Below, one piece after another: positions 10,967 to 45,618 of a stretch of 45,618 nucleotides of DNA. Below the pieces are notes generated by a model. It did no database searches. It was not told the DNA's origin and saw nothing but the letters and a program-made list of their open reading frames with translations. Source of the DNA: Planctomycetota bacterium (lineage in GTDB: Bacteria > Planctomycetota > JACOTG01 > JAJDCM01); NCBI GenBank assembly GCA_029260825.1, contig JAJDCM010000176.1, forward strand, positions 1-45,618, given 5' to 3'. The translations under genes were made by a program, and so were the position numbers. Position 1 is the stretch's first letter. Each line of letters starts with the position of its first letter.

Positions 10967-11178
10967 GGTCACCAATGTGCATCGCGAAAACCTTGAGTCA
11001 AGTGGAGCTTTTGAATCTACGCAGCAAGGGCCAATACGTTACGAGGTCTCGCCCATTCCAAGGTATGGGGGAAAGAAACCCAAAATTTGACCAGGATTTG
11101 CCCCCGACTCGATTCCCGTCCCGAATTCCGGTTACACTGCTGACTCACTCATCCGGCAGCTCCAGCTACGAGGATCCG

Positions 11179-12441: not shown

Positions 12442-12501
12442 CCGCAAGCTACCCAACACAGCAATCCGATATCCTGCAACAGGTTGCAAGGAGAAACACA
12501 C

Positions 12502-12972
12502 ATGATCGAGCAAAACTGCACCACCGCAATTGAACTTCTGACCGACCGACTTCAAGACGTCCCTCTCATGATTCTTGAGCTCCCCTCCGATCGACTTTCG
12601 GAAAAAGCGTCCCCGGAGAAATGGTCCGGAAAAGAGATCCTGGGGCACCTCACCGACTCGGCCCGAGCCAACCTGACCCGGTTTCTCGAAGCCCAACACG
12701 GAGAGGAGCCCTACGTTTCCCGGTCCTACCCGCAGGAGGCCCTGGTGAACTTAAACGGGTACCAGGACCTGACCGTCTCTCAGGTTCTCGCCCTCTGGGA
12801 GGCCTGGAACCGGGAGATCGTAAGGGTCCTGAAACTCATCCCTCAAGGAGCCCTCGGCCGGCGGATCTCCTTTGAAAACAACGACCCGGAAAAGACCCTG
12901 GGCTGGCTGATCGAAGACTATATTGAACACCTCGATCACCACCTCGCCGTCATCAAAAGCCAGGGGGACTGA
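12502..12972 (+). CDS. DinB/YfiT-like (DinB_2) family protein
   Basis: 156 aa. ATG at 12502 is preceded by AAGGAG 8 nt upstream. Carries the His-containing helical-bundle motifs typical of DinB superfamily metal-dependent proteins (GHLTDSA...IEDYIEHLDHH). Confidence 0.55.
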   Translation: MIEQNCTTAIELLTDRLQDVPLMILELPSDRLSEKASPEKWSGKEILGHLTDSARANLTRFLEAQHGEEPYVSRSYPQEALVNLNGYQDLTVSQVLALWEAWNREIVRVLKLIPQGALGRRISFENNDPEKTLGWLIEDYIEHLDHHLAVIKSQGD

Positions 12973-13029
12973 CCCGGATCATCAGGTTCATCCTTGCCAA
13001 ACCGTGTCGTCACCGGTATCCCTCTCTTC

Positions 13030-15031: not shown

Positions 15032-15069
15032 CGAATCCCCCCGAACGTTTTTTAAAAGCGAGACCCATC

Positions 15070-19592: not shown

Positions 19593-20339
19593 ATGGCATG
19601 TAACTCCCGGCAGTCCGAGAGAATCGGCGATTTCGCCGCAGGAGCGCTGAACGCCTCGGAAGCCGCAGAAATTCTTACGCACGTGGAAGAGTGCCCGGCC
19701 TGCTCGGAAGAATTCGACCTGGTTGCGGCCCTCCTTCACAAGACCCAGCCACCTCCGCTCACCCTGTTCAAGAATCGCTCCTGGCTCGTTCGACACCGCC
19801 TTGCCGTTGGTCTCGCAGCATCTATCCTGGCCGTCATTTCGATCGTATACGGGACGAACCTTGGGGATGAGACCTCGAACGAAACCCACCTGGAGATCGC
19901 AAGCCTCGCCGAGCTAGACCCGCTTCCCAGGCCGTCGTCCACGTTGCGCGGATCGGGAAACAATGCCCTGGAAGACGAACTCGAATCAGCTCTCCAGAGC
20001 TATACCGAGGGGAACTACGCGGATGCAGCTTCCTCCCTCCAGAAGGTGCTAGCCCGGAACCCGGATCATCCCTTGCCGAACCTCTACCTTGGGATTTCAC
20101 TGACCCAGATGGGCTCGTACCAGGAGGCGGTCACGTTTCTTGCAAGGTGCGCGAAAAACAGCGAGGGCCTCCTTCAGGAACGCGCCCTCTGGTATCAGGC
20201 GAACGCTCACCTGAAACTTGAAGAGCTTGACCCGGCCCGATCCATCCTTACCAGGATTCTGGCGATCGAAGGCGACTACGAGATCAACGCATCCGAGAAA
20301 CTCCTGCAAATCATGGGGCAAGCCGGGGCTGAAGAATGA
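19593..20339 (+). CDS. Anti-sigma factor with ZAS zinc motif, one TM helix and a C-terminal TPR-like domain
   Basis: HVEECPAC matches HxxxCxxC. The TM segment is LAVGLAASILAVISIVYG. The C-terminus has TPR-like helices (NYADAASSLQKVLARNPDHP...). It lies immediately downstream of the ECF sigma gene. Confidence 0.7.
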   Translation: MACNSRQSERIGDFAAGALNASEAAEILTHVEECPACSEEFDLVAALLHKTQPPPLTLFKNRSWLVRHRLAVGLAASILAVISIVYGTNLGDETSNETHLEIASLAELDPLPRPSSTLRGSGNNALEDELESALQSYTEGNYADAASSLQKVLARNPDHPLPNLYLGISLTQMGSYQEAVTFLARCAKNSEGLLQERALWYQANAHLKLEELDPARSILTRILAIEGDYEINASEKLLQIMGQAGAEE

Positions 20340-23300
20340 GGAGGTACGGAGCGTTCCTTTCGCTCCTGTTGGTTGGGTTTTTCGCCGCCTCCTTGTCGGC
20401 GATCCAGAGTTCAGCAGCTCCCCGAGAAGATCCTCAGATCCAGTTCACGAGGGTGGTCTTCGGTGCTCTTTCTCAAGGCGATTCATCCCGAGTTTCCTCG
20501 TTGATCAAAGAGAATCCTTACCGGATCGAATCCGTCATCAACGTTCTTCTCACCCAGGCGTCAGGTCCAAGCAGCACCGCCGAAATCGAAAACGCAGCCC
20601 GCAATCTCGCCAGAATTGCCGATTCAACCCTCGAGAATCGTGAATTCCTGGCCACCGTTCTCCTGCACATCGAGGGAGGGGAAACAGCCAAGCAGAAGAG
20701 ACTCGACCATGAGCGACTGTATGGTGAGGCCGTCGAAAAGCTTCAGCAAGAAAAGCTCCCTGAAGCGAAATCTCGAGTCGATAAAGCGCTGCAACTCGCC
20801 AGCACTCTTGCACAACCTTTTCTTTCCTCTCGATCCCTCCGGCTTCGTGCACACATTGAAAAAAGACTGGGCGACCTTGAAAACGCCATTCAAGATCTGA
20901 ACCGCGCCATCGCCCTCGATCGCCCTCGAGGAGCCAAGCTGGATCTCCTCGCCAATCTTCTTCTCCTGGCGGAAATCAAATCCATGGAGGGTGATCTTGA
21001 GATCGCCGTGACGGCAACGATCGAAGCGGTCGATCTGGCTCCCCTTGTTGGTGAACCATTTCGTCTACCCCAGCTTCTTCTTCAGCTCTCCTACCTTCAT
21101 GCCAGGCGCGGAAACCGAGAGGAATCGACTCGGGCCATCGACATGGCTCACGAATCAGCCGAGGAGCGGAACGACATCAATGGTCTCGCATCGGTCCTTG
21201 GGGCTAAAGCCTCCCTGGCAACGACCTGTGGAGACTACACCGCCGCAATCCGAGCCTATCTCCTGGCAAGAACTCTCCATCAAGATCTGGGCGACCGAGA
21301 AAACGAGACATCAACCCTCATCCACCTGGGCGGTCTCTATTCGGAAATCGGCCGGTTCATCGATGCAGAAGATGTCCTGAAGGAAGCTAGCGAGCGTCTC
21401 CAGGACCCAGGCCACCCTTCTCTGGCTCTTCTTCTCGGGCGCACACGATCCAGCCTTGGGCTCACGTTCCTTGATCAGGGAAAAACCAAGCAGGCTCTGA
21501 GCCAATTCGATCTTGCCGAACAGGAGCACCGGCGCTCTGGAGATGAAGTTTGGGCCATGGAAACAAAGCGGCACCGGGCCTACGCATATCTGGAGCAAGG
21601 TCGGCACGAAGAGGCTCGATCTGAATACCGGACAATCCTCTCCAATCCACGAACACCCGCCCTTGCTCGGGCCCTTTCCCGGACGGGAATCGGCACAAGC
21701 TTCGAAATGGAAGGAAAAGCAACCGAAGCCCTCGCCGCCTACCAAGCCGCGTTGATCGAGCCCCACCCGTTTCCCGAAGGTTCCTGGCGTGCGCGCTACG
21801 GAGTGGGCCGAATTCACGAGGCACGAGGTGAAACGTCCCGAGCAAAAGACGCATACCTCGCCGCACTCAAAGAACTAGACACTCTACAGCGATGGCTTCC
21901 GGGAACAGCCGACCGGCAAACCTATCTTGGAGATGCAAAGGGGCTTCATCGAAGAGCATCGAGACTCCTCGCAAAAGCCGGTGAGAATAATGCATCCTTT
22001 GTTGAAGCAGAAGCTGGAAAGGCGCGACTCCTCCTTGAGATGCAAGGCCATTCCGGCTTGCTCTCCCCCGCCCCTCTTGCCTCACCTGCCCGAGAAAAGC
22101 GCCAGAAAACCGAAGCCGACCTCGTCTTTCTGGAAAGACAACTGCGTGTCGAACCAACATTCAACTCCTCTTCAACATCAACGTCGAAAGGGTTGGAAGA
22201 GAAGCTAAAAAGCGTGCGGATCGAGCATCAACAGGCCCTTCTTGCCGCCCAGATGGAGAGTAGCTGGGCCCAAGAGCTTCAAGGAAGAGCACTCGACGTC
22301 TCGCTCGAGTCCGTCCAACAGGCTCTTCCCCCCGACGCAGCTCTGATCGAATACCTGATCGGGTCGGAAGGATCCGCCGCCTGGGTACTGACTCGACGCA
22401 CTGCCCGATTCATCAACCTCGGGGCGAACGAAGCCGCCGTTACCGGATGGATTGATCGAATCTACCGCCCCATCGAACTCCTTGCTGCAAAAGAAACCGA
22501 TATCGCAAACCTTGGTTTTGATGCCAGGGCAGCCGGCCTCCTTCATGCAACACTGGTCAAGCCCCTCCTCGCCTCGATCGGAAAGAGCACCCTCCTCTAC
22601 ATCGTTCCCGACGGCCCGCTCCTTCGTCTTCCATTCTCCCTCCTGGTGAGCGCTCACAAGAAGCAACCGGTACGTCCTGGGGAGCTGTACGCTCACCACC
22701 ACGGCTGTCGATTTCTGATCGAAGACTTCGCCATCTCCTACCTTCCAACCGCGGGAATCCTGCTATCGAAGAAGTCTCCCGGTTCTTCGAGGGGAAACAC
22801 CGGGGTGGTGATTGCTTCTCCCGACCCTCTACCGCCGGGGGCGAAGCATCTCGCAGCTGCACTATCGGAGGCAAGAGCGGTAGCAAAAGAAACCGGCGCT
22901 TCCATGTTCACTCTGGGAAAAGCGACGGAAACCAGGGCAAAGGAAGCCCTGTCGAACGCCCCATGGATACACCTTGCGACTCATGGATTCCTCTCTGATC
23001 GCCGCCCCCTCTACTCCCGCATTGCCCTCGCTCCCGGACCAGACGACGACGGATGGCTTCACGCCTTTGAAGTCGAAAGGCTCAAACTCACTTCCCGCCT
23101 GGTCATCCTTTCCGCTTGCGAAACTGCGGAGGCCGCAGAGCGAACCTCCGGATGGCTCGGTCTCTCAAGATCCTTCCTTCTGGCGGGGGCGACTTCAGTC
23201 GTTGCATCTTTCTGGGTGGTCGACGATGAAGCAACACGATGGCTCTTCCCACGATTCCATCGTGAGCTTGCAAATGGACTGGCTCCTGCCATGGCCCTCC

Positions 23301-23404
23301 AGAGAGCACAGGTGGAGATTCTCCGCAACAAACGACGGGGATCCCTTCACTTCGTGCATCCATTCTTCTGGGCTGGCTTCATCGCGATGAGCTCGGATCA
23401 CTAG
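20336..23404 (+). CDS. Secreted TPR-repeat protein with C-terminal CHAT (caspase-like) peptidase domain
   Basis: ATGA overlap with the anti-sigma stop. Signal peptide MRRYGAFLSLLLVGFFAASLSAIQSSA. About 600 aa of TPR-like repeats. The C-terminal CHAT domain carries the His/Cys dyad (WIHLATHGF ... LVILSACET). Confidence 0.8.
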   Translation: MRRYGAFLSLLLVGFFAASLSAIQSSAAPREDPQIQFTRVVFGALSQGDSSRVSSLIKENPYRIESVINVLLTQASGPSSTAEIENAARNLARIADSTLENREFLATVLLHIEGGETAKQKRLDHERLYGEAVEKLQQEKLPEAKSRVDKALQLASTLAQPFLSSRSLRLRAHIEKRLGDLENAIQDLNRAIALDRPRGAKLDLLANLLLLAEIKSMEGDLEIAVTATIEAVDLAPLVGEPFRLPQLLLQLSYLHARRGNREESTRAIDMAHESAEERNDINGLASVLGAKASLATTCGDYTAAIRAYLLARTLHQDLGDRENETSTLIHLGGLYSEIGRFIDAEDVLKEASERLQDPGHPSLALLLGRTRSSLGLTFLDQGKTKQALSQFDLAEQEHRRSGDEVWAMETKRHRAYAYLEQGRHEEARSEYRTILSNPRTPALARALSRTGIGTSFEMEGKATEALAAYQAALIEPHPFPEGSWRARYGVGRIHEARGETSRAKDAYLAALKELDTLQRWLPGTADRQTYLGDAKGLHRRASRLLAKAGENNASFVEAEAGKARLLLEMQGHSGLLSPAPLASPAREKRQKTEADLVFLERQLRVEPTFNSSSTSTSKGLEEKLKSVRIEHQQALLAAQMESSWAQELQGRALDVSLESVQQALPPDAALIEYLIGSEGSAAWVLTRRTARFINLGANEAAVTGWIDRIYRPIELLAAKETDIANLGFDARAAGLLHATLVKPLLASIGKSTLLYIVPDGPLLRLPFSLLVSAHKKQPVRPGELYAHHHGCRFLIEDFAISYLPTAGILLSKKSPGSSRGNTGVVIASPDPLPPGAKHLAAALSEARAVAKETGASMFTLGKATETRAKEALSNAPWIHLATHGFLSDRRPLYSRIALAPGPDDDGWLHAFEVERLKLTSRLVILSACETAEAAERTSGWLGLSRSFLLAGATSVVASFWVVDDEATRWLFPRFHRELANGLAPAMALQRAQVEILRNKRRGSLHFVHPFFWAGFIAMSSDH

Positions 23405-23548: not shown

Positions 23549-26500
23549 ATGCAAAACTTTCGATCACAAACCCGTGGGCGGGTGACACTGGGCCTCGCGA
23601 TGATCAGCTTGTCCGTCCTGGGGTTCAGCTCGTCAGGAAGCGCCCAGGAGAGAGCGAAAGCACGAGATCTTGAACCTCGCGTTGCATTCAGAAGGCCACA
23701 GCTGGACCTGCTGTCATCCGCAGACGCATCGGATGTGATCGTGGTGAAGTTCCTCGAGGGAACCGGCATTCGGTTTTCAGGAAAGCGCGCCTCGTCTCGC
23801 ACTCGATCCAGCGTCGGCGAACTCCAGGCCGTCGTCGATCAGGTCACAAGCCAGGTCGAAAAGATCTTTGCCAGACCGGAGAGTGTCCTTTCACAAGAGA
23901 AACGGGTCGGTGAATCCAGATCAGGTCGTGAGCTCGCCGATCTCAACTTGTTCTACCGATTCCACGTTCAACGTCATCGCGATCCTCTCGACGCTCTGGA
24001 AAGTATTCTCTCCCTTCCCCAGGTGGAAACGGCCTACTTCGCACCCAGGCCCGCCCCTTCTCCCACCGATCTCCCTCCGGTCACCCCGACCTTCAACGGA
24101 CAACAGAACTATCTGGGTCCGGCGCCTCAAGGAGTGGACGCTCAATACGCATGGAGTCTCCCAGGAGGAAGAGGAACCGGAGTGCGAGTCTGTGATATTG
24201 AATACAACTGGCACACTGGCCACGAGGAATTCAACGATGTTGGAATCACCCTCCTTGGCAACGCGCCGCTTGTTCCCCCCAACCTCAACACCGCCCAGGA
24301 AACCTACCACGGCACCGCATCTCTTGCCGTCGTTGGTGCCGATGACAACGGTTACGGAACCCGGGGAATCGCCAGTCAAGCCAGACTGTACATCACCGGC
24401 TCCTTCACCCAGCAAGGAGGATACAACCCGGCCAACGCCATCAATCTTTCGGCCGGAGCCCTTCCCGGCGGAAGCGTCTTGCTCCTGGAGATGCAAGCCT
24501 GCGCCGATCAGTTCTGCAACGTCCTCGTTCCCATCGAGTGGTTCGCGGCAGAATACGCCGCGATCGCCAGTGCGGTAGCCAACGGAATCATCGTGGTCGA
24601 GGCTGCCGGCAACGGGGGTAACGACCTCAGTGACACCAATCAATTCGGCAACGCCTTTCGCCGATCCGTTCAAGATTCCGGAGCCATCATGGTTGCCGCC
24701 GGAGACTCCCAGGGGAACCCGCTCTTCTTCACCAACCACTGCACGACGGATTCCCGCATCGACGTCTGGTCCTGGGGAAACAGCAATGTGGTTACCGCAG
24801 GATATGGCGACCTCTTCTACGGAGGATCGTCGGACAATCAAGCCTACACGACCACCTTCGGTGGGACTTCGTCAGCGTCAGCAATCGTTGCCGGTTGCGT
24901 CGCCAACTTGCAGGGTATCGCCCAGCAAATGCTTGGAAAGACTTTGACCCCGGCGGAGGTGAGGAGCATCTTCACGACGACCGGAACCCCTCAGGCGGTA
25001 AGCGCCATGCTGATCGGGTCTCAACCCAACTTGCGAACGGCTACCGCCTATTTGATGGATCAAGAGATCCAGCTCCTACCCTTTCAGTTCGTTCCCGGCA
25101 TGCCATCCCCCAACCCCCTTTCTCCCGGCGAGATCCTGGCTACCGATCTCAATCGGGACGGATCTCCCGAGCTCATCTTCAGCTACCAGGACAACCTCAC
25201 TTTCACGGGAACCATGGAAATCGTGTTGAACAACGGTGGTGTCTACGGACCCTCCATCCCTTTCCCCCTCGGATTCGGACAGCCCTTCCTCGCAACGGGC
25301 GACTTCAATCAGGACGGGAATCCGGACATCGCGGCCACAACATCAACCCTGGTGACCGTGTTCCTCGGAGATGGATCCCTCGGATTCCTGAACGTAATCC
25401 CAGTGCCTCTTCCCGTAGCTGGATTCGGGACCGAGATAGCCGATTTCACCGGGGATGGAAAACCGGACATCGCGGTCGCCCACTCCGGCCTCCTCAGCGT
25501 TCTTGTTGGGGACGGCCTGGGTAACTTCACGTTCACAAGCTTTGCCTATCCCGCACAAAACTGGATCGACGTCGAGGCCTGTGACATGACGGGAGATGGA
25601 GCGATCGACTGGTGCCTGACGGGGAGTGATACGACGATCCTCGTGAACGACGGTTCGGGAACCCCGGTCGCCAATCCGTTTTCCACCAATGCTCCTGGAA
25701 CCTCGATCGTCACCGGTGACCTGGATCAAGACGGACGAAAAGACATCGCGGTTCTCAGCCCGGGAGGCGGAACTCTCACGAGCTTCAAAGGAGATGGGGC
25801 TGGATTGGCAACTCAAACTTCGGTGACCTCATTTCCCCTGAGCATTCTTGGTAATCAGGTCATCTTGCAAGACTTCAATGGAGATCTCCTTCTGGACGCC
25901 GCCATCTCCGGAGTTCAAACCCCCATTCCCGGGGGTGGTACCCAGGATGGACCCGCTCTCCTGCTCGGAGACGGGCGAGGAGCATTCGGGCCTCCCGGCG
26001 GATCGTTCTCTCTTGGTTTCGGCTTCGGAGGCATTGCAGCAGGGAATCTTGCCGGACTCAATCAAACCGACGTTGCCCTCGCGGTTCTGAATCCAGGGGG
26101 GTTTGTTGATGTCGAGCTGTTCGTGAACCCGATCTTCCAAAAACGAATGAAATGTCGTACGGGCAATGTGAATGAAACTCTGGGAGTTGCCGTCGACGTC
26201 CTCTCAGTGAGCGGTCAAACGGGAGATGTTGATCGAATCCTCCGGCTTTCCCCGTCGACCACGTTTACCATCGACATGGCTGCACCACAAAACGGGCCGG
26301 CGTCCGCTCCTTACGTCCTGTACGCAGTGCGAGGACAGATTTCCTTCACGGATGAAACCAACCATCCATTCAACATCGGAACCACGTGCTTCCCCACCCC
26401 CCTCTCAGGCGGGACTCTTCCCAATACGGTTGTCGTGGCAAATAGCCTTGGCTACACGGGACTCCTGGGCACCCCTCTTTTGAATCGAGGTCCGGCTCCC

Positions 26501-26629
26501 GGGACGGTGGCCACGGTGGTTGGCGGGCTTCCGGCAGGATCAAGGCTCTTCTTACAAGGGTTTATCCGAGACAACAACGGGCAGATTGCAATCACGGTAA
26601 CAAATGGAGTGGAAGTGCAAGTTTGGTAG
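23549..26629 (+). CDS. Secreted subtilisin-like serine peptidase (S8) with C-terminal FG-GAP/VCBS beta-propeller repeats
   Basis: AGGAGG SD 7 nt upstream of the ATG. Signal peptide present. Catalytic triad in D-H-S order (VRVCDIEYNW; HGTASLAVVGA; GGTSSASAIVAG). The C-terminal half carries FG-GAP motifs (DLNRDGSPELIF, DFNQDGNPDIAA, DFTGDGKPDIAVA, DLDQDGRKDIAVL). Confidence 0.8.
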   Translation: MQNFRSQTRGRVTLGLAMISLSVLGFSSSGSAQERAKARDLEPRVAFRRPQLDLLSSADASDVIVVKFLEGTGIRFSGKRASSRTRSSVGELQAVVDQVTSQVEKIFARPESVLSQEKRVGESRSGRELADLNLFYRFHVQRHRDPLDALESILSLPQVETAYFAPRPAPSPTDLPPVTPTFNGQQNYLGPAPQGVDAQYAWSLPGGRGTGVRVCDIEYNWHTGHEEFNDVGITLLGNAPLVPPNLNTAQETYHGTASLAVVGADDNGYGTRGIASQARLYITGSFTQQGGYNPANAINLSAGALPGGSVLLLEMQACADQFCNVLVPIEWFAAEYAAIASAVANGIIVVEAAGNGGNDLSDTNQFGNAFRRSVQDSGAIMVAAGDSQGNPLFFTNHCTTDSRIDVWSWGNSNVVTAGYGDLFYGGSSDNQAYTTTFGGTSSASAIVAGCVANLQGIAQQMLGKTLTPAEVRSIFTTTGTPQAVSAMLIGSQPNLRTATAYLMDQEIQLLPFQFVPGMPSPNPLSPGEILATDLNRDGSPELIFSYQDNLTFTGTMEIVLNNGGVYGPSIPFPLGFGQPFLATGDFNQDGNPDIAATTSTLVTVFLGDGSLGFLNVIPVPLPVAGFGTEIADFTGDGKPDIAVAHSGLLSVLVGDGLGNFTFTSFAYPAQNWIDVEACDMTGDGAIDWCLTGSDTTILVNDGSGTPVANPFSTNAPGTSIVTGDLDQDGRKDIAVLSPGGGTLTSFKGDGAGLATQTSVTSFPLSILGNQVILQDFNGDLLLDAAISGVQTPIPGGGTQDGPALLLGDGRGAFGPPGGSFSLGFGFGGIAAGNLAGLNQTDVALAVLNPGGFVDVELFVNPIFQKRMKCRTGNVNETLGVAVDVLSVSGQTGDVDRILRLSPSTTFTIDMAAPQNGPASAPYVLYAVRGQISFTDETNHPFNIGTTCFPTPLSGGTLPNTVVVANSLGYTGLLGTPLLNRGPAPGTVATVVGGLPAGSRLFLQGFIRDNNGQIAITVTNGVEVQVW

Positions 26630-33836: not shown

Positions 33837-34256
33837 ATGACTCAACGAAAAACCCGCAAGAAAACCCGCCTGCGCAAGAACCTCTCCGATCTCGAGCTAT
33901 CCATCATGAACGTTGTTTGGGATCTGCAGGAATGTTCTTCGAATGAGGTCATTGACCGCTTTCAAAAGCAGCGCCGGCTGGCGCCTACAACGATCCGCAC
34001 CGTTCTCACGAACATCGAGAAGAAGGGCTACCTCGAACGGGTTCCAAGCGTCGAGCGTGGATATCGCTATCGCCCCACGGTAAGCCGGCAAGACGTCGCG
34101 AACACCTCTCTCAAAAGCCTTGTCTCCAACTTGTTCAAAAACTCACCGCGCCTCGCTCTCCTCCATCTTCTAAAAGACGAAAGGCTTGACGATCAAGATC
34201 TTGAGGAAGTCCGAAAGTTGATCCTGGCATCTTCGCCCAAGAAAGGAAAGAAGTGA
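33837..34256 (+). CDS. BlaI/MecI/CopY-family transcriptional repressor
   Basis: 139 aa. Winged-helix motif LSDLELSIMNVVWDLQECSSNEVIDRF...TTIRTVLTNIEKKGYLER. GTGA overlap with the downstream M56 gene. Confidence 0.8.
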   Translation: MTQRKTRKKTRLRKNLSDLELSIMNVVWDLQECSSNEVIDRFQKQRRLAPTTIRTVLTNIEKKGYLERVPSVERGYRYRPTVSRQDVANTSLKSLVSNLFKNSPRLALLHLLKDERLDDQDLEEVRKLILASSPKKGKK

Positions 34257-35689
34257 GCTGGGAACTCCTACTAACCCGACTCATGGGAGCAAGCCTTGAG
34301 CTTCTGGCTCTTGCCATCCTCATGCTGCTCGCCATTCGTTTCTTGCCACTTCGATCGGCTCGGGTTCGGTCACTCCTGTGGATCCTTGTACTGCTGAAAC
34401 CTGTCTTGAGCTTGACCACGGGAACTCTCGTTCCGATAACACACCTGAGTTTTGCATCGTTCCCGACGAAACAGAGAATGATCGTCGCAATCGAAGAGGA
34501 AGAAAAGACCTTCCCAGGTCTTGTGCAACCTCTTCATCAACTTGATCGGCGCAAAGAAACGACAAGCCCCCAGCCATCCATCTCACTCTTTGCCATCCTC
34601 GGGTCTCTTTGGTTTTTCGGACTTGCCATCCTCCTCAAGAAGAGCATCGACCGCACCCTCCTACTTCAGCGCATCTTGACGATGAGCCATCCCGTGCCAA
34701 AGGAGGTAGGCAAATTCTACCGTTCGCTCTGTCTCGAGCTTGGCTTGAAAAAAAGGCCCCCGATTCGAACCACCGACGCTCTCAATTCTCCGGCCCTGGC
34801 TCGAGTCCTTCGCCCCGTCATCCTCGTGCCAAGCTGGATGATTCAGGAAAAGGAAGGCTTGAAAAGCCAGCTCGCCTGGGCCCTTCGACACGAGCTCCGT
34901 CATTTCCAGAATCATGACCCGCTCGCTTCCGCGCTCCGTCAGATCAGCCAAACCCTCTTCTTCTTTCACCCCCTCGTCTGGTGGACGGGAAACCGTTGGG
35001 AAGAAGAAGCAGAGCTTGCGTGTGACCGCGCCCTGGTCAGCAGCCCGGAAGAAGCAAGGAGCTATGCCAGCGAGCTCTACAACATCTTGGTTCAGGTGCG
35101 ACGCCACCGATCGACAAAACCCATGGTCGGTCTTTCCGCCACCCGGACCCAGATCGGCCACCGCATCAAGACGCTGCTCGAGACCGGCGTTTCCGGAAGG
35201 CAAGACTTCGGAGCCGCCCATATCAGCGCTGTCAGCTTTGTCGCCCTTTGCGTCCTCACCCTGGGGCTTGGCAGCTTCACCCGGGCAAGCGACTCGGGTC
35301 GCAACCTGAAAATCGAAGAGGAAGAAGTCGTCGAGTACGAAATCAATAGCCCGGGTTCAGCTGATCAGGAGGCCCAAACCCAGCTCTCGCTCGAGCTGGA
35401 AACAAGCGATCGAAGCATCCGACTGACCGCAACGGGAAGATTCTCCGTTCGCCCGGATTCAAAAGAGCTCATCGAACTCACCCCGGGCGACACCCTCCAC
35501 ATCGAGGATCGACGAGGAACGACCGTTCGCAAGATCAGCGTTCAGTGCAAAGATCCTGGCGAGCTCGATTTTCGCTACGAAAGCGGCGGGATGGTCCATC
35601 CCATGACCTCCGCGACACACGCCTGGTTGGATGAGGTTCTTGACCTGTACCGAAAAGACCTCACCCGCGAGCACACAAGCTCAATATAG
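34253..35689 (+). CDS. BlaR1-like M56-family membrane metallopeptidase / signal transducer
   Basis: N-terminal TM helices and the HExxH zinc site (RHELRHFQNHD), as in peptidase M56 BlaR1/MecR1. The C-terminal periplasmic domain is not a penicillin-binding domain (no SxxK seen). Confidence 0.7.
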   Translation: MSWELLLTRLMGASLELLALAILMLLAIRFLPLRSARVRSLLWILVLLKPVLSLTTGTLVPITHLSFASFPTKQRMIVAIEEEEKTFPGLVQPLHQLDRRKETTSPQPSISLFAILGSLWFFGLAILLKKSIDRTLLLQRILTMSHPVPKEVGKFYRSLCLELGLKKRPPIRTTDALNSPALARVLRPVILVPSWMIQEKEGLKSQLAWALRHELRHFQNHDPLASALRQISQTLFFFHPLVWWTGNRWEEEAELACDRALVSSPEEARSYASELYNILVQVRRHRSTKPMVGLSATRTQIGHRIKTLLETGVSGRQDFGAAHISAVSFVALCVLTLGLGSFTRASDSGRNLKIEEEEVVEYEINSPGSADQEAQTQLSLELETSDRSIRLTATGRFSVRPDSKELIELTPGDTLHIEDRRGTTVRKISVQCKDPGELDFRYESGGMVHPMTSATHAWLDEVLDLYRKDLTREHTSSI

Positions 35690-35916
35690 AAAGCTGGAAA
35701 TCGTCCGGCTCGATCCCCCAGCGAAGGCAAATGTCACTCCCCACGGGTCGGAGAGCGTCCAAGAGAATCGAGAAGAGGAGAAACAAGGGTATAGGACCCT
35801 CTTTTCAGGTCAAAGACCTTCTTCATCACGATCCACTGCTTAGGGTAGAATGCGGACAATTCGTCCAGCACTCAAAAGTCCATTGCAAATGACCCACACT
35901 ACTCGAGGTGGCAACC

Positions 35917-38766
35917 GTGAAGACCCTGGAAACCTCCGTCTATTTCGGCCCCAGCCTGTATGCACATTTCCCCGTCATTCGTTTGACCCTGGATCTGGGC
36001 GCGCTGGAAGAATGGCCTTCCGCAAAACTGGGTTCCGATTTCACCTCGAATCTCATCGACAGCCTTCCCGGCCTCAAAGAACACGGATGCTCGTACGGGG
36101 AACCCGGTGGATTCGTGAGGCGCCTCACCGAAGACGACGGAACCTGGTTGGGTCACGTGCTCGAACACTGCGCGATCGAGCTCCAGTGCGTCGCCGGAAT
36201 CGACGTCACCTTTGGCAAGACCCGATCTACCGGAGACCCGGGCTGCTATCACGTTGTCTACGAGTACGAACAGGAAGAGGTCGGGCTGGAAGCAGGAAAG
36301 CTTGCCCTGTTACTTCTTGACTCCCTCCTTCCAGAAGAACTTCAAGACCCAGGACTCCGACCCGATGACTGGACGTTCGCGGAAGAGCGGGACGAGTTCA
36401 TCCGGTTTGCTCAGCGTAGAGCTCTTGGACCCAGTACATCCTCTCTCGTCAAGGCCGCACGGGAGCGGGACATTCCCTGCCTCCGACTCAACCGCTACAG
36501 CCTGGTTCAACTCGGCCATGGGATCCTCCAGAAGCGAATCCAGGCCACCGTCACCGGAGAAACCCGGCATATCGCGGTCGATATCGCTTCTGACAAGGAA
36601 GAAACCAACAAGATTCTCGGTGATCTTGGGCTTCCGGTTGCCAGACAACGGCTCGTTTATGGGGAGCGGGAAGCGGTGCGGGCGGGCCGACGTATCGGTT
36701 ATCCCGTGGTCGTAAAACCGCTGAACGCAAACCACGGCCGGGGCGTGTCCACCCGCTTGACCGAAGAAGAGCAGGTCGCCAAGGCATATCATCAGGCAAG
36801 AGAACACAGCCGCACCGTCATCGTAGAGAGTTTTATCGAAGGCTTCGATCATCGCATGCTCGTCGTGGATGGAAACCTCATCGCGGTTTCTCAGAGAATG
36901 CCGGGCCATGTTAAGGGCGACGGAAAGCACACGATCGAAGAGCTCCTTGAAGAAACCAATCAAGATCCGCGTCGAGGAATCGGACACGAAAAGGTCCTGA
37001 CGCGCATGGATCTGGACCATCAAGCACTTCGACTCCTCGAACAAAACGGGTACGACCAAACGAGCGTCCCTCCCGAGGGAACCGTTGTCTTTCTTCGGTC
37101 CACAGGAAACCTGTCCACCGGTGGAACCGCCATCGACAAGACCGACGTCGTCCACCCGGACAATCGGGAAATGGCGATGCGCGCCGCCAAGGCAATCGGC
37201 CTTGACGTGGCGGGAATCGACTTCCTGACCACCGACATCTCTCAATCTTTCAAGGAAACAGGAGGCGCAATTTGTGAAGTCAATGCGGCTCCCGGCTTTC
37301 GCATGCACGTGGCTCCAAGCGAGGGAGAACCTCGAGATGTGGCCGGCCCGGTCATGGACATGCTCTTCCCCCCCGGAACACCCACCCGGATTCCCATTGC
37401 CTCTATCACCGGAACCAATGGAAAAACAACCACCACTCGCATGCTCGCCCACATCTTCAAGATGACGGGAAAAACCGTGGGAGTTGCCACCACAGATGGA
37501 GTGTATATCGGTGGACACCGCACGGTTGAAGGTGACATGACCGGCCCGTTTGCTTCCCGCATGGTGCTTCGCGATCCCTCGGTTGAGGTCGCTGTTCTGG
37601 AAACCGCGCGAGGTGGTCTCCTTCGCCGTGGAATGGGTTATCGAAGCTGCAACGTCGGTGCTTGCCTCAACGTTCAGGCCGATCACCTGGGCCTTCGTGG
37701 CGTCAACACCCTGGACGATCTTGCCGCGGTGAAGAGAGTTGTCGTTGAAATAGCAAAAGATACAGCCGTTCTCAACGCGGACGACCCCCAGTGCCTGCGA
37801 ATGGCCGACTATACAAAAGCCAAGCAGGTCTGCTATGTGACCATGGACCACAACCACCAGCTCGTCAAAGAGCACATCGGCGCCGGTGGCATGGCCGTGG
37901 TTCTTGAGCAAGGGATTCAGGGCCAGATGATCACCCTCTATGATCAGGGGGCCCATCTTCCTCTCCTCTGGAGTCATCAGATTCCGGCAACTCTCGAGGG
38001 TCGGGCCGTTCACAACGTTCAGAACGCCATGTTCGCCGCGGGGATGGCTCATGCCATGAGCACCTCTCTCGAAGACATCCGCCACGGATTGCAGACATTC
38101 GACACCACCTACTTCCAGGCACCCGGCCGCCTGAACGTCTTTGACGATCATCCTTTCAAGGTTATTCTCGACTACGCCCACAACCCTGCCGCCATCAACA
38201 GCATGGTGAACCTCACGCAAAAGCTCGATCCCAAGGGACGAAAAATTGCCGTGGTTGCGATGCCAGGAGACCGTCGAGACGAAGACATCGCCGAGACTGC
38301 CCGTCTCATTGCCGGTCAGTTCGATCATTACATCTGCCGCCGGGACGATTCCCTTCGTGGAAGGGAGCCGGATGAAGTCCCTCGACTTCTACAAGATGGA
38401 CTCCTCTCCGCCGGTGTCTCCAAGGAGCAGATCCAGATCATTCCTGAAGAACACGAGGCCGTAACCACGGCTCTTCAGATGGCAAGAAAGGACGATCTCG
38501 TTCTTCTCTTCGGCGACAATATTGATCGCTGCTGGGAACAAATCACCCAGTTCCGACCCGAAGACGGAGCGACCTCAACCCCTGACGAACAATCTACTTC
38601 ATTGTCTGGTTCTGGTTCCCCCACCCCCTGGGTGACCGATGATGCTGGTGCATCACTTCGAGTCCCCAAAGAAGCCAAGGGGAGTACCTCTCCCGGAGGA
38701 AGTAGCGAAACAAACTGGGTGAGAGATGAGAGGGGCGTGCGGCTCGCCCGGGAGTCCGATGACTGA
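35917..38766 (+). CDS. cphA: Cyanophycin synthetase (CphA1-type: N-domain + ATP-grasp + Mur-ligase-like domain)
   Basis: N-domain MKTLETSVYFGPSLYAHFPVIRLTLDL. ATP-grasp core (IGYPVVVKPLNANHGRGVS ... EVNAAPGF). Mur-ligase P-loop ITGTNGKTTTTRMLAHIF plus the ETARGGLLRRG and LNADDP motifs. GTG start at 35917 with GAGG 9 nt upstream; an alternative GTG is at 35908. An 80-aa low-complexity C-terminal tail is present. Confidence 0.85.
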   Translation: MKTLETSVYFGPSLYAHFPVIRLTLDLGALEEWPSAKLGSDFTSNLIDSLPGLKEHGCSYGEPGGFVRRLTEDDGTWLGHVLEHCAIELQCVAGIDVTFGKTRSTGDPGCYHVVYEYEQEEVGLEAGKLALLLLDSLLPEELQDPGLRPDDWTFAEERDEFIRFAQRRALGPSTSSLVKAARERDIPCLRLNRYSLVQLGHGILQKRIQATVTGETRHIAVDIASDKEETNKILGDLGLPVARQRLVYGEREAVRAGRRIGYPVVVKPLNANHGRGVSTRLTEEEQVAKAYHQAREHSRTVIVESFIEGFDHRMLVVDGNLIAVSQRMPGHVKGDGKHTIEELLEETNQDPRRGIGHEKVLTRMDLDHQALRLLEQNGYDQTSVPPEGTVVFLRSTGNLSTGGTAIDKTDVVHPDNREMAMRAAKAIGLDVAGIDFLTTDISQSFKETGGAICEVNAAPGFRMHVAPSEGEPRDVAGPVMDMLFPPGTPTRIPIASITGTNGKTTTTRMLAHIFKMTGKTVGVATTDGVYIGGHRTVEGDMTGPFASRMVLRDPSVEVAVLETARGGLLRRGMGYRSCNVGACLNVQADHLGLRGVNTLDDLAAVKRVVVEIAKDTAVLNADDPQCLRMADYTKAKQVCYVTMDHNHQLVKEHIGAGGMAVVLEQGIQGQMITLYDQGAHLPLLWSHQIPATLEGRAVHNVQNAMFAAGMAHAMSTSLEDIRHGLQTFDTTYFQAPGRLNVFDDHPFKVILDYAHNPAAINSMVNLTQKLDPKGRKIAVVAMPGDRRDEDIAETARLIAGQFDHYICRRDDSLRGREPDEVPRLLQDGLLSAGVSKEQIQIIPEEHEAVTTALQMARKDDLVLLFGDNIDRCWEQITQFRPEDGATSTPDEQSTSLSGSGSPTPWVTDDAGASLRVPKEAKGSTSPGGSSETNWVRDERGVRLARESDD

Positions 38767-40504
38767 ATCGCCCCCCCTCCTCATGAAGGATTCCCGTCGA
38801 CTCACCGGACCCAACATGATCTGGGATCATCCCGGTGCGGTCATCGACGTCGCGGGAGAAGATTCCAGCATCGAATCTCTCATTGATGCCTGGAAAACCG
38901 AAGCCCGGCGTATCCTGAAAGCTGTCGGCTTTGATCAAGAAACAACTGGCGTTCGTCGTTTCCAGGGAGGAGCGAGCCTGGCTCTTAGTGCTCCGATCGA
39001 TGCCCTTTATGCAGCCACCGAGGTGAATGAGTGGGCGTTTCACTCCGCTTGCAAATCTCTCGGCTTCGACACCGGCGAAACCCCCGTTCCTCCCATTGCC
39101 GAAGCTACCGATCAGCTTCGCTCCATCATCGAAGAGGAACGCAACCCAGCGCTCCTCGCCCTCCGGCAGGCAGCCGTTGACAATCAAGTTGCGTTTCTTA
39201 CCGATGATGACGAAGCATCGATCGGGATGGGAATCGGTTCACGTCGATTTGAAGTCTCGGACCTTCCAGATCCCAACGACCTCGACTGGTCGACCATTCA
39301 TAACATCCCCGTCGCTCTTGTCACCGGCACCAACGGAAAGACAACCACCGTTCGATTGCTATCCGCAATGGCAAAAGAAGCCGGTCACGTGTACGGCTGC
39401 TGCTCCACCGATGGAATCCTGGTCAACGGAAAGGTCGTTTCTCCTGGAGACTACTCGGGTCCAGGTGGCGCGCGAACCGTGTTGCGTCACCCGGATGTAA
39501 CTCTCGCCATTCTTGAAACAGCCCGGGGAGGCCTTCTTCGTCGCGGGCTCGGGGTGGGTGAGAATCCGGTCTCTTGCTCCCTCGTAACGAACATCGGAGC
39601 CGATCACCTCGGGGAGTTCGGGGTCGCCGACCTCGATGCTCTCGCCGACACAAAACTCATCGTGCGCCGGGCGGTCAAGAAGCCAGGTCGGCTCATCCTG
39701 AATGCGGACGACCCCATCCTGAGTGCGAAGGCATCCGCTCTCGATCTTCCCCTTGCATGGTTCACCCTGAAAGAAAGCCATCCGCTCGTTGAGCCTCACG
39801 TGGCACGAGGCGGAACGGCAGCCTGGATCGAAGAGAAGTGCTTCTGGCTTTCAACGGAAGGGAAGATCCAGAAAATCGGCTCGGTGAACAAGGCTCCGAT
39901 CACTTACAACGGCGCTGCCCATCACAACATGGCCAATGCTCTTTCCGCAATCTTGGTCGCCTCCCACCTGGGTCTCTCCTCCGAGGAAATCAAGGCGGGT
40001 CTTGCAAGTTTCGAGAATACACCCGAGCAGAACCCGGGCCGTGGAAATCTCTTCCACCTGGGTGGTGTCCAGATCCTGGTCGACTTTGCCCACAATCCAC
40101 ATGGGTGCGAGGCCCTCATTACCATGGCCTCCAAAATGCCCGCCGAGCGACGCCTCATCATTCTTGGTCAGGCCGGTGACCGGGACAATGAATCCATTCT
40201 CGAAATGGTTCGGGTCTGCTGGAACGCTCGCCCTGACCGAATCCTAGTGAAAGAAATGCTTCCCTTTCTGAGAGGGCGGGAACCCGGAGAGATCCCTGCC
40301 CTGATTCATCAGGAGCTCACCCGAGTCGGAGCTCCGGAAGACGCAATCGGCCATGCCGGCTCGGAATTAGAGGCGATCCATGAAGCGCTGGCCTGGGCAA
40401 AGCCGGGCGACTTGCTATTGCTCCTGGTTCACGCCGAAAGGAAGGCAGTGCTGGAGCTGATGGCGAAGTTGGAAAAAGAAGGGTGGAAGCCCCGACACGA
40501 CTGA
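38759..40504 (+). CDS. Truncated cyanophycin-synthetase paralog: CphA N-domain fused directly to a Mur-ligase-like domain, with no ATP-grasp domain
   Basis: MKDSRRLTGPNMIWDHPGAVIDV aligns with the CphA N-terminus (MK...GPN.W). About 190 aa later comes VTGTNGKTTTVRLLSAMAKE (P-loop), then ETARGGLLRRG, NIGADHLG and LILNADDP, as in the CphA M-domain. No RimK/ATP-grasp motifs lie between them. ATG at 38759 overlaps the cphA stop by 8 nt; an alternative ATG at 38783 matches the CphA N-terminus exactly. Confidence 0.7.
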   Translation: MTESPPLLMKDSRRLTGPNMIWDHPGAVIDVAGEDSSIESLIDAWKTEARRILKAVGFDQETTGVRRFQGGASLALSAPIDALYAATEVNEWAFHSACKSLGFDTGETPVPPIAEATDQLRSIIEEERNPALLALRQAAVDNQVAFLTDDDEASIGMGIGSRRFEVSDLPDPNDLDWSTIHNIPVALVTGTNGKTTTVRLLSAMAKEAGHVYGCCSTDGILVNGKVVSPGDYSGPGGARTVLRHPDVTLAILETARGGLLRRGLGVGENPVSCSLVTNIGADHLGEFGVADLDALADTKLIVRRAVKKPGRLILNADDPILSAKASALDLPLAWFTLKESHPLVEPHVARGGTAAWIEEKCFWLSTEGKIQKIGSVNKAPITYNGAAHHNMANALSAILVASHLGLSSEEIKAGLASFENTPEQNPGRGNLFHLGGVQILVDFAHNPHGCEALITMASKMPAERRLIILGQAGDRDNESILEMVRVCWNARPDRILVKEMLPFLRGREPGEIPALIHQELTRVGAPEDAIGHAGSELEAIHEALAWAKPGDLLLLLVHAERKAVLELMAKLEKEGWKPRHD

Positions 40505-43730: not shown

Positions 43731-45618
43731 CTACCGGAGTGCTCGAATGACCTGGAACGGAATGGACAATGCGGCCATGGCTTCCGCGCTTCCGTCCTTC
43801 AAGAGTTTCTGGCGTGCTCTTCGAAGAGCCCTTGAAGCATCGGCCCCGTTCAGAACTTCTTCGTAGAACGGAAGAAGCACGCGAACAGCCAGGGCGTCCT
43901 CGACCCAGACCGGTGAGGCCAACACCGCTTTCGTCCCCGCATTCAAGAAACCCCACGCCAAAGAAATGACCCCCTCCGCTCGTTCACTTTGGCCGGCTCC
44001 ACCCTCACAGCTGGATAACACGACCAACTCGAAGGGAAGCGAGAGACCCTGAATTTCCCGGACATCGAGACGCCCGTCCTCTCCCTCCCCGGGTGCGAGT
44101 TCGAGAAGAGAATCGCCTCCCCGGGTCCGATCAACCTGGCTGTGACCGATGATATGCAGGAAGTCATAACCTTCTGATGAGGCCTTCTTGAAAAACGCCT
44201 CGCTTGCTGCGCTCCCGACACAAATCTTGCGATCCTGCGGATCAAACAACGAAGCGATCCTGTCAGCCTCCTTTCCTGAATCCAGGAGAGGAGGAAGCCC
44301 TTCTTGATCTCCGAAAGAAAACAGAAGTAGCTTCCTGCGGTCTTGCTTCCCCCGAAAGCCCGAGTCTTCCGGCATCAAAGAGCGCAAACACGGTGCATGG
44401 AAGATCTCAAAATCCCGGAACAGAAACGGAACTTCGCTGAGGGTCGTGCATGCCGGGCGGCCCGGCCATGGCAACAAGTCGAGAGGAAAGTCGTGGAGAA
44501 CCCCATCAGCCAGAAAGACGATTCTATTCGCCCGGGAAAGAAGATCTCCCACTTGCCCTAGAATCAGGCCGGATAGGCGGGAGGAGTGTCGCGAGTAGGC
44601 TCGAGCCCGAGGCACCTCGAGCAAAGTATGGCGAACAAATCCAACACTGCGGGATAGGTCTTCTTTTTCGGGGACGGGAAAAACGCGCACTTCGTCTCCC
44701 AGAGTAGCAATCCCAACTCGGGCCTCGAGATCGTAGGCCAGAAGAAGATCCGTGGGCCGAAGAACTCGCTTGATTGCTGAGAAAAAGACGGGGGGATCAA
44801 AAGGTGTATCGACGATTCGACCCGATCCATTTCCCGTATCACCCAGAGACTCCAGGAGGGCTCCCGCTCGTCCGAACTCAAGAAAAGCAAGAGCGGTTTC
44901 TGCATAACGCTTCTCTTTGGTTTCAAAATAAGCCTCCGCTGCAGTTCGAACGGCAAGCGAAGCGCTAATTCTTGCCTGGCGTCCATAACGCAGCTTCCCC
45001 TCAAGCGCCAGCTCTTCCATATTTGCCAGTATCTTCTTGCGCGCTCGAACAACTCTCACGAAATCATTCAACGCCGAATCATCATCCCCCATCCGTCTGT
45101 AGCATTCGGCCCGGCGAAGATACACCAGCTCCTGAGCATTCTCACTTCCATGGGAGACCGCGCGATCCACCAGTTGATTCAGCGTTTTCAGCCCTTCTTC
45201 CAGAGAAGATGAGAGGACGAGATCTCCGGCAAGAAGCATCCGCAAATCCCAATCATGTCGTTCCGGCAAACCGGAGGCCAGGCATTCTCGAATCCGCTGC
45301 TTCAACCCGGCAGGAAAAGACTCGCCAAGATCGAGGGCCAAACGACCCTCAACATTCAATCGGTGAACATTGAGGTGTTGGAACTCACTATTCCTCCTGT
45401 AGCCCGCGGTTTGCCACCAGCGATTGAGCTGTGTAGCTCCTTGGGCACATCGAGCTCTCGCCTCGGGGAAACGCCTCAACACTCGCAACTTTTCCGCCCA
45501 GTAGAAGGCAGTCTGAGCTGCTCGCCAGTGGAGGCCCGATTTCCTGGCCAGATCAAACGAACGAGACATCAACGTCAAGGCCTCATCGGAATGCCCAAGC
45601 GCCTCTTCGACGACCCCC
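43731..45618 (-). CDS. TPR-like/CHAT-domain protein, 5'-truncated by the window edge
   Basis: The C-terminal CHAT domain carries the His/Cys dyad (FLHIIGHSQV ... LVVLSSCEGG). The reading frame stays open from 45578 to the window end at 45618 (GVVEEALGHSDEALTL...), so the true start lies outside the window. Confidence 0.7.
   Translation of the reverse strand, partial: GVVEEALGHSDEALTLMSRSFDLARKSGLHWRAAQTAFYWAEKLRVLRRFPEARARCAQGATQLNRWWQTAGYRRNSEFQHLNVHRLNVEGRLALDLGESFPAGLKQRIRECLASGLPERHDWDLRMLLAGDLVLSSSLEEGLKTLNQLVDRAVSHGSENAQELVYLRRAECYRRMGDDDSALNDFVRVVRARKKILANMEELALEGKLRYGRQARISASLAVRTAAEAYFETKEKRYAETALAFLEFGRAGALLESLGDTGNGSGRIVDTPFDPPVFFSAIKRVLRPTDLLLAYDLEARVGIATLGDEVRVFPVPEKEDLSRSVGFVRHTLLEVPRARAYSRHSSRLSGLILGQVGDLLSRANRIVFLADGVLHDFPLDLLPWPGRPACTTLSEVPFLFRDFEIFHAPCLRSLMPEDSGFRGKQDRRKLLLFSFGDQEGLPPLLDSGKEADRIASLFDPQDRKICVGSAASEAFFKKASSEGYDFLHIIGHSQVDRTRGGDSLLELAPGEGEDGRLDVREIQGLSLPFELVVLSSCEGGAGQSERAEGVISLAWGFLNAGTKAVLASPVWVEDALAVRVLLPFYEEVLNGADASRALRRARQKLLKDGSAEAMAALSIPFQVIRALR

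Follow-up and report, generated by a model that had tools for sequence, protein, structure and literature searches.

The DNA analysed here, called the window throughout, is a stretch of 45,618 nucleotides (nt) from a Planctomycetota bacterium (contig JAJDCM010000176.1), and the subject of this work is a pair of adjacent genes of the cyanophycin synthetase (CphA) type that it carries. The upstream gene, cphA1 (35908..38766, + strand), encodes a full-length cyanophycin synthetase 1 of 952 amino acids (aa), recognised with TIGR02068 and Pfam, in which the N domain, the ATP-grasp (G) domain and the Mur-ligase-like (M) domain are all intact. The downstream gene (38759..40504, + strand) encodes a "G-less" CphA paralogue of 581 aa, hereafter the N+M protein, which was defined from its open reading frame (ORF), Pfam, TIGR02068 and BLASTP. 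An initial annotation, for which a model saw only the sequence and a list of its ORFs, had described this gene as a paralogue with N and M domains only, whose start overlaps the stop of a full-length cphA. The reading frame and the overlap are both as described, with the ATG at 38759 and the TGA stop of cphA1 (38764-38766) sharing the string ATGACTGA in an overlap of 8 nt, and the sequence GGGAG is found 4 nt 5′ of this ATG. The ORF enclosing the gene spans 38726..40504 (+), the 581 aa being counted from ATG 38759, and ATG 38726 and ATG 38783 are alternative starts. Homologues mostly start near window residue 7-9, which makes ATG 38783 a possible alternative; ATG 38759 is favoured because the predicted first strand covers aa 8-15. 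A scan of 35500-40900 for promoters and terminators returned nothing above chance, and no terminator between the two genes. The N+M gene is a stand-alone gene in an operon with full-length cphA1.

The upstream protein scores 1158 bits with TIGR02068 against a cutoff of 850 and matches PF18921 (the Cyanophycin_syn N domain), ATP-grasp families, PF08245 (Mur_ligase_M) and PF02875 (Mur_ligase_C), which identifies it as a bona fide CphA1 and bears out its description as a full-length neighbour. It also carries a Cx21HxxEH peptidase motif at aa 61-87. A 672-aa antisense ORF runs through cphA1 (36310..38328, −); it is most likely a by-product of the G+C-rich coding sequence and not a gene, and long antisense ORFs of the same kind accompany other genes of the window.

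The M domain of the N+M protein is complete. Its core (Mcore, Mur_ligase_M, aa 188-401, 39320..39961, +) matches PF08245 with E 1.9e-17 and contains the P-loop GTNGKTT (39326..39346, +), the Mg-binding residue E253 and the catalytic pair D282-H283 (39602..39607, +), while its lid (Mlid, Mur_ligase_C, aa 428-555, 40040..40423, +) matches PF02875 with E 1.4e-15 and contains NPGRGN (with R428), DFAHNPHG (with H445) and GQAGDRD. These two matches place the protein in the Mur ligase superfamily, and the ETARGGLLRRG and NADDP motifs, which together with the P-loop had led to the proposal of an intact Mur-ligase domain, are present as well. TIGR02068 aligns to the protein only over model positions 477-854 (363 bits, below the cutoff), and BLASTP aligns aa 183-556 with residues 495-868 of the neighbouring CphA1 at 37% identity. 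Among proteins of known structure, the M domain is far nearer to CphA1 (E 5e-98) than to MurE (E 1e-21 to 1e-26), and it possesses the P-loop lysine, Mg-binding glutamate and Asp-His pair that mark a MurE-like ligase.

Across 78 members of the family, from many phyla, the residues N192, K194, E253, D282, H283, N390, N393, R428, D442, H445 and R475 are invariant, and T/S195 and T/S217 vary conservatively. Structural studies of CphA1 showed that the counterpart of N192 sandwiches the adenine ring, that K194 corresponds to the P-loop lysine, that the counterparts of T/S195, T/S217 and E253 are Mg ligands, and that those of R428 and H445 provide the phosphate contacts of Mlid (PMC9427784, PMC9262961). 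D282-H283 corresponds to D585/H586 of SuCphA1, the mutation of which inactivates the M domain (PMC9427784, PMC9262961). In a joint alignment with 62 CphA1 M domains, 58 columns reach at least 90% conservation with the same residue in both families. That the catalytic residues do not vary, at an overall identity of about 47% across phyla, argues strongly for retained catalysis.

The first 182 residues, on the other hand, are hardly recognisable from their sequence. No Pfam or NCBIfam model, PF18921 included, matches aa 1-182; BLASTP against the neighbouring CphA1 finds nothing for this part; and a hidden Markov model of the family searched against all PDB sequences matched CphA1 in the M domain only. 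The comparison by hhalign of the N-terminal profile with 62 CphA1 proteins gave a colinear alignment (N+M residues 4-164 with CphA1 residues 1-211) at a non-significant probability of 3.7%. The AlphaFold2 (AF2) model of the full-length protein, with a predicted local distance difference test (pLDDT) value of 93.3 and a predicted template modelling (pTM) score of 0.91, has as its best matches in the PDB the CphA1 structures 7WAE, 7LGJ and 7LG5 (E about 1e-38 to 5e-40). Normalised by the length of the query (581 residues), the corresponding template modelling (TM) scores are 0.80-0.81, and the alignments run over the entire target of about 870 residues with the G domain left as a gap, so that the superposition on CphA1 suggested by the initial annotation is obtained. 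As the M domain makes up only about two-thirds of the query, the N-terminal part must superpose too, in the same orientation. Modelled alone, aa 1-182 (pLDDT 94.8) matched 12 of 350,542 PDB chains at E ≤ 1e-3, all of them CphA1 or CphA2 (E 3e-6 to 6e-4, over 192-213 alignment columns), and the next match had E 9e-3. These searches support the view that the N-terminal part is a very divergent CphA N domain that is recognisable by fold only; the earlier assignment of a CphA-specific N domain is thus supported at the level of the predicted fold and not at that of sequence detection.

This predicted N domain (aa 8-101, 38780..39061, +) has a beta-beta-alpha-beta-beta-alpha order, with a DSRRLTGPN loop and a SAPIDALYAATEVNEWA helix, and lacks HxxEH. 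It is followed by two helices and three short strands (aa 113-165, 39095..39253, +; NPALLALRQAA..VAFL..D..S.G.G.GS), and the extent of the structural alignment together with the weak colinear hhalign match indicates that aa ~113-180, some 50-70 residues, are probably a remnant of the first segment of the G-domain core (Gcore), a segment that begins with residue 162 in TeCphA1. Homologues conserve the N-terminal 180 aa strongly, with the signatures DSRRLTGPN, SAPIDALYAATEVNEWA and ERNPALLAL..A...V.FL.DD..S.G.G.GS. Missing are roughly residues 215-480 of CphA1, about 265 residues comprising Glid, G-omega and the ATP-binding part of Gcore. No ATP-grasp model of Pfam matches the N+M protein at E ≤ 0.1, and neither Pfam nor the PDB fold searches reveal a cryptic ATP-grasp fold in residues 1-200; the reported absence of the ATP-grasp segment is therefore correct. 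The proposed order of N domain and M domain also stands, though not the statement that the two are joined straight to each other, owing to the probable Gcore remnant between them. Judged from the models, a divergent N domain is followed by a probable Gcore remnant and then by a complete M domain.

The metallopeptidase site Cx19HxxEH of the CphA1 N domain, which is present in about 80% of CphA1 proteins, was found in 0/78 N+M members. The loop of CphA1 that matches TGPNxxW contacts the M domain (PMC9262961), which explains the survival of this motif in the N+M protein. The models suggest that the N domain and Mcore keep their CphA1 arrangement, and in CphA1 a cyanophycin analogue bound at the M site sits between these two parts (PMC9427784).

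The N+M protein is a member of a large family. Among 5.8 billion proteins searched, full-length homologues have 558-593 aa and 49-56% identity; 37 of them align with the window protein end to end, and the database names of the homologues are generic, such as "Mur ligase family protein", "cyanophycin synthetase" and "UDP-N-acetylmuramyl tripeptide synthase". A profile of the N-terminal part, searched against 1.84 billion cluster representatives (clustered at 50% identity), matched 808 at E ≤ 1e-3 and 575 at E ≤ 1e-10; among the best 150 of the 808, every full-length match has 556-620 aa, the others are metagenomic fragments, and none has the length of CphA1. A scan of one genome per GTDB species revealed at least 576 relatives, and the synteny counts that follow refer to the best 80 loci of these. 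They belong to Gemmatimonadota, Thermoanaerobaculia and other Acidobacteriota, Planctomycetota, Rhodothermales, Marinimicrobia, Eisenbacteria and Kofleriaceae as well as to Gamma- and Alphaproteobacteria (Colwellia, Halioglobus, Woeseiaceae, Lysobacterales, Rhodobacteraceae, Sphingomonadales and Phenylobacterium). A full-length cphA1 lies upstream on the same strand in 68/80 loci, and in 63 of those 68 no more than 210 nt separate its stop from the point where homology begins (median 20 nt, with a 14-nt overlap as the minimum), which answers for the 80 loci the earlier question of how often cphA is followed by such a gene. Five of the 12 loci that lack an upstream cphA1 have less than 1 kb of upstream sequence. 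The synteny is kept in at least eight phyla, and Betaproteobacteria and Myxococcota fall within the spread of the family.

The pair is also found in cultured strains. Complete plasmids of Ruegeria sp. THAF33, Shinella zoogloeoides ATCC 19623 and Roseateles sp. XES5 carry a cyanophycinase gene, then cphA, then a gene for a "Mur ligase family protein"; further cultured carriers are Leucothrix mucor and several Colwellia species. The N+M protein and its partner CphA are WP_160788060.1 and WP_160788061.1 in Shinella zoogloeoides ATCC 19623, and WP_152460471.1 and WP_152460470.1 in Ruegeria sp. THAF33. Many cultured Colwellia species have close N+M homologues, and three Colwellia loci in our set (L063, L068 and L075) carry the cphA1 and N+M pair. 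On a scaffold from a marine metagenome, the pair stands by itself, with unrelated genes on either side.

Within M domains, identity is 47% between N+M proteins, 68% between partner CphA1 proteins, 36% between N+M proteins and partner CphA1, and 37% between N+M proteins and non-partner CphA1. N+M and CphA1 proteins separate completely in a neighbour-joining tree. Because of this split and the equal distance to partner and non-partner, the N+M proteins are considered an old sister lineage and not a recent derivative of the neighbouring gene. A recent deletion derivative of the adjacent cphA1 is ruled out by the same two results.

The CphA1 proteins encoded next to N+M genes differ from others at their extreme C-terminus. 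The window CphA1 ends in the motif WVRDERGVRLARESDD-COOH (38716..38763, +), which is kept in CphA1 proteins with an N+M partner; a degenerate first copy, WVTDDAGASLRV (38629..38664, +), was read from the translation of its low-complexity C-terminal extension. The motif thus occurs twice here, within a Ser/Gly/Pro-rich extension of about 70 aa, whereas the other partner tails examined have one copy. The consensus [LFIV][IV]RDERGVRLARExx(D/E)D-COOH is present in 62/62 adjacent partners; the tail is rich in Arg, Asp and Glu, and Asp is the last residue in 61/62. The HxxEH peptidase site is likewise present in 61/62 CphA1 proteins neighbouring N+M genes. In the plasmid collection, only four records hold the N+M N domain, and these same four are exactly the records in which the alignment of CphA1 with the window CphA1 continues through residue 948-952. 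The tail was found in 3/3 examined plasmid CphA1 proteins with an N+M partner and was absent from 6/6 CphA1 proteins whose cphA-iaaA-cyanophycinase operons do not include an N+M gene (Deinococcus, Pelagibacterium, Mesorhizobium, two Sphingobium strains and Rhizobium). It is also missing from the second, divergent CphA1 paralogues that some loci have near the N+M gene (L041, L013, L005 and L057), and the CphA1 proteins of solved structure from Tatumella and Acinetobacter show no alignment to it.

For the reverse association, metagenome contigs were scanned with a degenerate DNA pattern encoding RDERGVR(L/F)A, without regard to the presence of an N+M gene. The pattern retrieved 120 stretches, 41 of which are chance matches outside any CphA context. 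Seventy lie at the C-terminus of a CphA1 ORF, and where at least 300 nt of downstream sequence is available (65 stretches), the N+M N domain follows on the same strand within 400 nt in 61/65. Nine further stretches have too little upstream sequence to confirm CphA1, and the N+M N domain follows in 8/9. Combined, 69/74 (93%) tail-bearing sequences are followed by an N+M gene. The CphA1 tail and the N+M protein co-occur in both directions, and the window locus, with its tail at 38716..38763 and the N+M start at 38759, fits the family pattern. In some Gemmatimonadales (locus L041, 2203..4860, −; also L013, L017 and L049), cphA1 and the N+M gene are separated by a third gene, which runs on the opposite strand. 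Its product is a full-length, 885-aa paralogue of CphA1 that shares 44% identity with the window CphA1 and has HxxEH but no tail.

Among described enzymes, the closest relatives are the CphA1 proteins of Synechocystis sp. UTEX2470 (7LG5/7LGJ) and Trichodesmium (7WAE), with which the N+M protein has in common a homologous M domain (37%), the catalytic residues and the predicted fold of the N domain; the genomic and metabolic context and the predicted arrangement of N and Mcore are the same as well. Unlike CphA1, the N+M protein lacks the catalytic part of the ATP-grasp domain and the peptidase site, and falls below the TIGR02068 cutoff. CphA2 consists of N and G domains with a truncated, inactive M domain (PMC10273328). 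Compared with CphA2 (7TA5, 8FXI), in which G is active and M vestigial, the N+M protein is the mirror image, having lost G and kept M intact. With MurE and the other peptidoglycan Mur ligases it shares the Mur_ligase_M and Mur_ligase_C folds, the P-loop and the DH motif, such that an acyl-phosphate mechanism would be expected. However, MurE structures superpose with TM scores of only 0.50-0.53 (E ~1e-21 to 1e-26), the scores with the murC, murD, murE and murF models are far below their cutoffs (94 bits against 257 for murE), no Pfam match to a Mur N-terminal substrate-binding domain is found, and none of the N+M loci examined here lies in a cell-wall (dcw) context. An 838-aa "Mur ligase family protein" of Deinococcus taeanensis plasmid p_TS293_2 (WP_225523393.1; locus L093, 3939..6455, +), whose gene adjoins amino-acid ABC transporter genes, was considered as a second type of stand-alone M protein and rejected, as it proved to be CphA-like and full-length, though divergent. 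It has a CphA-type M domain 45% identical to that of CphA1 and only marginal Pfam matches to the CphA N domain and ATP-grasp, and gives the impression of a CphA1 paralogue in which the N and G domains are decaying.

The architecture had been thought to be uncharacterised. In the full-text literature searched, no paper on the architecture, function or tail motif of N+M CphA proteins was found, and a 2023 survey of cyanophycin gene clusters (PMC10206079) does not mention the gene. The family itself, however, has very probably been listed before. Vollmers et al. 2013 (PMC3646047; Fig. S3, Table S2) list "group VII cyanophycin ligase-like proteins", following the classification of Fuser and Steinbuchel 2007, with examples from Colwellia psychrerythraea 34H (YP_268602), Francisella tularensis (YP_170102) and Octadecabacter arcticus. 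In the same source, YP_268602 adjoins the group VI CphA YP_268601, and YP_170102 adjoins YP_170103 (PMC3646047). This adjacency of accessions to group VI CphA, together with the Colwellia pairs, suggests that group VII is very probably the N+M family and that Francisella tularensis probably carries a cphA1 and N+M pair. As tabulated, group VII is a phylogenetic group only, with no architecture, structure, function or link to a tail given. Deletion of cphA in Francisella tularensis LVS lowers the whole MglA/SspA virulence regulon in broth (PMC2763202). "Longer and shorter cphA copies in series", both expressed in Tetrasphaera metagenome-assembled genomes, have been noted in activated sludge (PMC10687191), and the shorter copy may belong to the N+M family. 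Two adjacent genes of the cphA type are also known as the tandem cphA/cphA′ pairs of Betaproteobacteria (groups IV and V; Ralstonia eutropha H16, Nitrosomonas). Both genes of such a tandem are near full length, with G domains. They constitute other phylogenetic groups in Table S2 (PMC3646047).

It is established that the N+M protein cannot polymerise the Asp backbone, and that it is genetically locked to a subfamily of CphA1 with a dedicated C-terminal peptide. According to the models, it further retains exactly that part of CphA1 (N plus Mcore) which positions the cyanophycin chain and performs the ATP-dependent ligation onto an Asp carboxylate. On balance, we lean toward the reading that the N+M protein is an active side-chain ligase that works on the polymer of a dedicated, tail-bearing CphA1, with the tail coupling the two proteins. 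It would be a catalytically competent, ATP-dependent amide ligase of the Mur-ligase type, an ancient CphA paralogue that has lost the backbone-polymerising ATP-grasp machinery, and it would be co-transcribed and work with the CphA1 subfamily that bears the RDERGVRLARExxD tail. CphA1 would make the polymer, the N+M protein would provide a second site of side-chain ligation, for arginine by default and possibly for another amino acid, and the CphA1 tail may serve as a docking element or as the first acceptor, coupling CphA1 to the N+M protein. Its activity as an enzyme, its amino-acid specificity and its acceptor are inferred, as is what the tail does; candidate acceptors are the growing C-terminal Asp, bare Asp residues within the chain and the Asp-terminated tail. 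The addition of arginine or a different amino acid to Asp side chains as polymer editing, which the initial annotation had suggested, is likewise a putative function; what is shown is that the catalytic residues do not vary and that the gene is tied to one CphA1 subfamily.

Several observations weigh against an arginine ligase coupled in this way. The M domain of the partner CphA1 is itself intact, so the need for a second site is not obvious, and a degenerate partner M domain for which the N+M protein compensates is ruled out, as the partner motifs are intact. Four columns of the joint alignment are conserved but different between the N+M and CphA1 families (W334/Y, L395/M, N425/A and A472/P), with N425/A corresponding to NPGR in place of APGR and A472/P to GQAGDR in place of PGDRRD. 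CphA1 has an acidic DD before its RGR, in the stretch that corresponds to the DNPR motif with which MurE binds the amino acid to be added, and this DD is not conserved among N+M proteins. The substrate may thus be other than arginine, the loss of DD being a lead and not a result. Given the strong divergence of the N domain, binding of the polymer is not to be taken for granted. In addition, some 6% of the tail-bearing CphA1 genes are not immediately followed by an N+M gene, and a few N+M genes (L005 and L057) lie beside a tail-less CphA1 on the other strand.

These points bear in different ways on the competing explanations. The intact M domain of the adjacent CphA1, next to which a plain duplicate activity seems redundant, the family-specific differences near the Mlid motifs, the lost DD and the age of the N+M lineage, apart from all sampled CphA1 M domains (36-37% identity), would all suit an enzyme that attaches a residue other than Arg (Lys, Orn, Cit, Glu, etc.) to Asp beta-carboxylates, or a variant that extends the free alpha-carboxylate of a side-chain Arg to give mixed or further-branched cyanophycin. 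Since those differences could instead reflect lost contacts with the G domain, altered specificity is regarded as unlikely, if a serious candidate. The C-terminal Asp of the tail invites another explanation, in which the N+M protein would ligate the first Arg (or another residue) onto it, the tethered primer would then be extended by the G and M domains of CphA1, and the N-domain peptidase would later free the chains. The near-universal terminal Asp, the Arg, Asp and Glu content of the tail and its co-occurrence with the N+M protein in both directions are consistent with such priming, as is the fact that CphA1 chemistry acts on a C-terminal Asp (PMC9427784); the HxxEH cleaving site kept in nearly all partners could release the product. 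However, that very site means that the partner already has its own primer-generating peptidase and would depend less on a dedicated primer, a docking peptide would account for the conserved C-terminus just as well, and it is an assumption that the tail reaches the active site, which makes priming by the N+M protein distinctly improbable. The broader notion of protein-primed cyanophycin synthesis, started by the N+M ligase on the synthetase itself, with the tail as a built-in acceptor and the CphA1 peptidase releasing the chains, draws on the likeness to glycogenin self-priming and to the extension of the C-terminus of ribosomal protein S6 by RimK, and is a little more doubtful still; if true, the initiation of a non-ribosomal amino-acid polymer would follow a new mechanism.

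A non-catalytic subunit is also conceivable, which would assemble with CphA1 through the Gcore remnant, the tail or both, and regulate or scaffold synthesis or granules. The piece of Gcore that is probably retained belongs to a module that makes tetramer contacts in CphA1, the genetic coupling to a tail-bearing CphA1 is strict, and CphA2 sets a precedent for an inactive vestigial domain. The invariance of the ATP/Mg and catalytic residues across phyla, at about 47% overall identity, speaks against this, and a purely structural role is unlikely on the evidence of the alignment; the explanation as a whole is given little credence. That the gene is an artefact (a frameshifted or decaying cphA), or an ordinary peptidoglycan Mur ligase that happens to lie beside cphA1, might be read into the database names of its homologues, "UDP-N-acetylmuramyl tripeptide synthase" or "Mur ligase family protein", but is close to inconceivable. 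A fragment of a frameshifted second cphA, which the initial annotation had named as a possible refutation, is not supported and is ruled out by the 808 clusters of a conserved family of ~570 aa with uniform lengths of 556-620 aa, by the strong conservation of the N-terminal 180 aa and by the lack of any ORF fragment for a G domain. Likewise, the best matches of the protein are CphA1 M domains and not MurC-F, and the synteny with cphA1 extends over at least eight phyla. A peptidoglycan function and pseudogene status are excluded.

A cyanophycin catabolic cluster (10975..16293, +) lies about 21 kb upstream of cphA1. It encodes an arginine-deiminase-family protein with an N-terminal extension of 70-100 aa (10975..12441, +; TIGR01078, 299 bits, below cutoff), the isoaspartyl dipeptidase IadA (12994..14229, +; TIGR01975, 390 bits, above cutoff), a cyanophycinase (14168..15031, +; TIGR02069, 254 bits, above cutoff) and a class-V aminotransferase or cysteine-desulfurase-like protein (15070..16293, +). 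As the window encodes both cyanophycinase and isoaspartyl dipeptidase, the organism turns cyanophycin over. The genes for synthesis and degradation are apart in the window and form a single operon on the Ruegeria and Shinella plasmids.

Directly upstream of cphA1 are genes for a BlaI-type repressor (PF03965) and a BlaR1-type M56 peptidase sensor (PF05569) (33837..35689, +). This pair is absent at the other loci with annotation or called genes that were examined and is probably unrelated to cphA1. Two CHAT-domain proteins are encoded within 19593..23404 (+) and at 43731..45578 (−), one of which has a long TPR array and is preceded by a zf-HC2/TPR protein (19593..20339), and FG-GAP repeat proteins and an S8 subtilase-FG-GAP fusion (23549..26629) are encoded near the CHAT genes. 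At the edge of the window, an ORF (407..1447, +) contains a Peptidase_S74 "chaperone of endosialidase" domain (E 9e-9), which is typical of phage tail-fibre and tailspike proteins.

The existence of the N+M family appears not to be new, while its architecture, its structural relation to CphA1, the invariance of its catalytic residues, its breadth and, most of all, its coupling to the CphA1 tail appear undescribed. Next to the described types, CphA1 (N-G-M) and CphA2 (N-G-vestigial M), the order N-(Gcore remnant)-M would represent a third and common architecture, with about 800 clusters. Metagenomic surveys of cphA copies already label N+M genes as cyanophycin synthetase. With an active N+M protein, the biotechnological production of cyanophycin could be affected, in yield or through new polymer compositions. 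If the N+M protein is active, many environmental bacteria would make cyanophycin by a two-protein system, the product, initiation or regulation of which may differ from those of the textbook enzyme.

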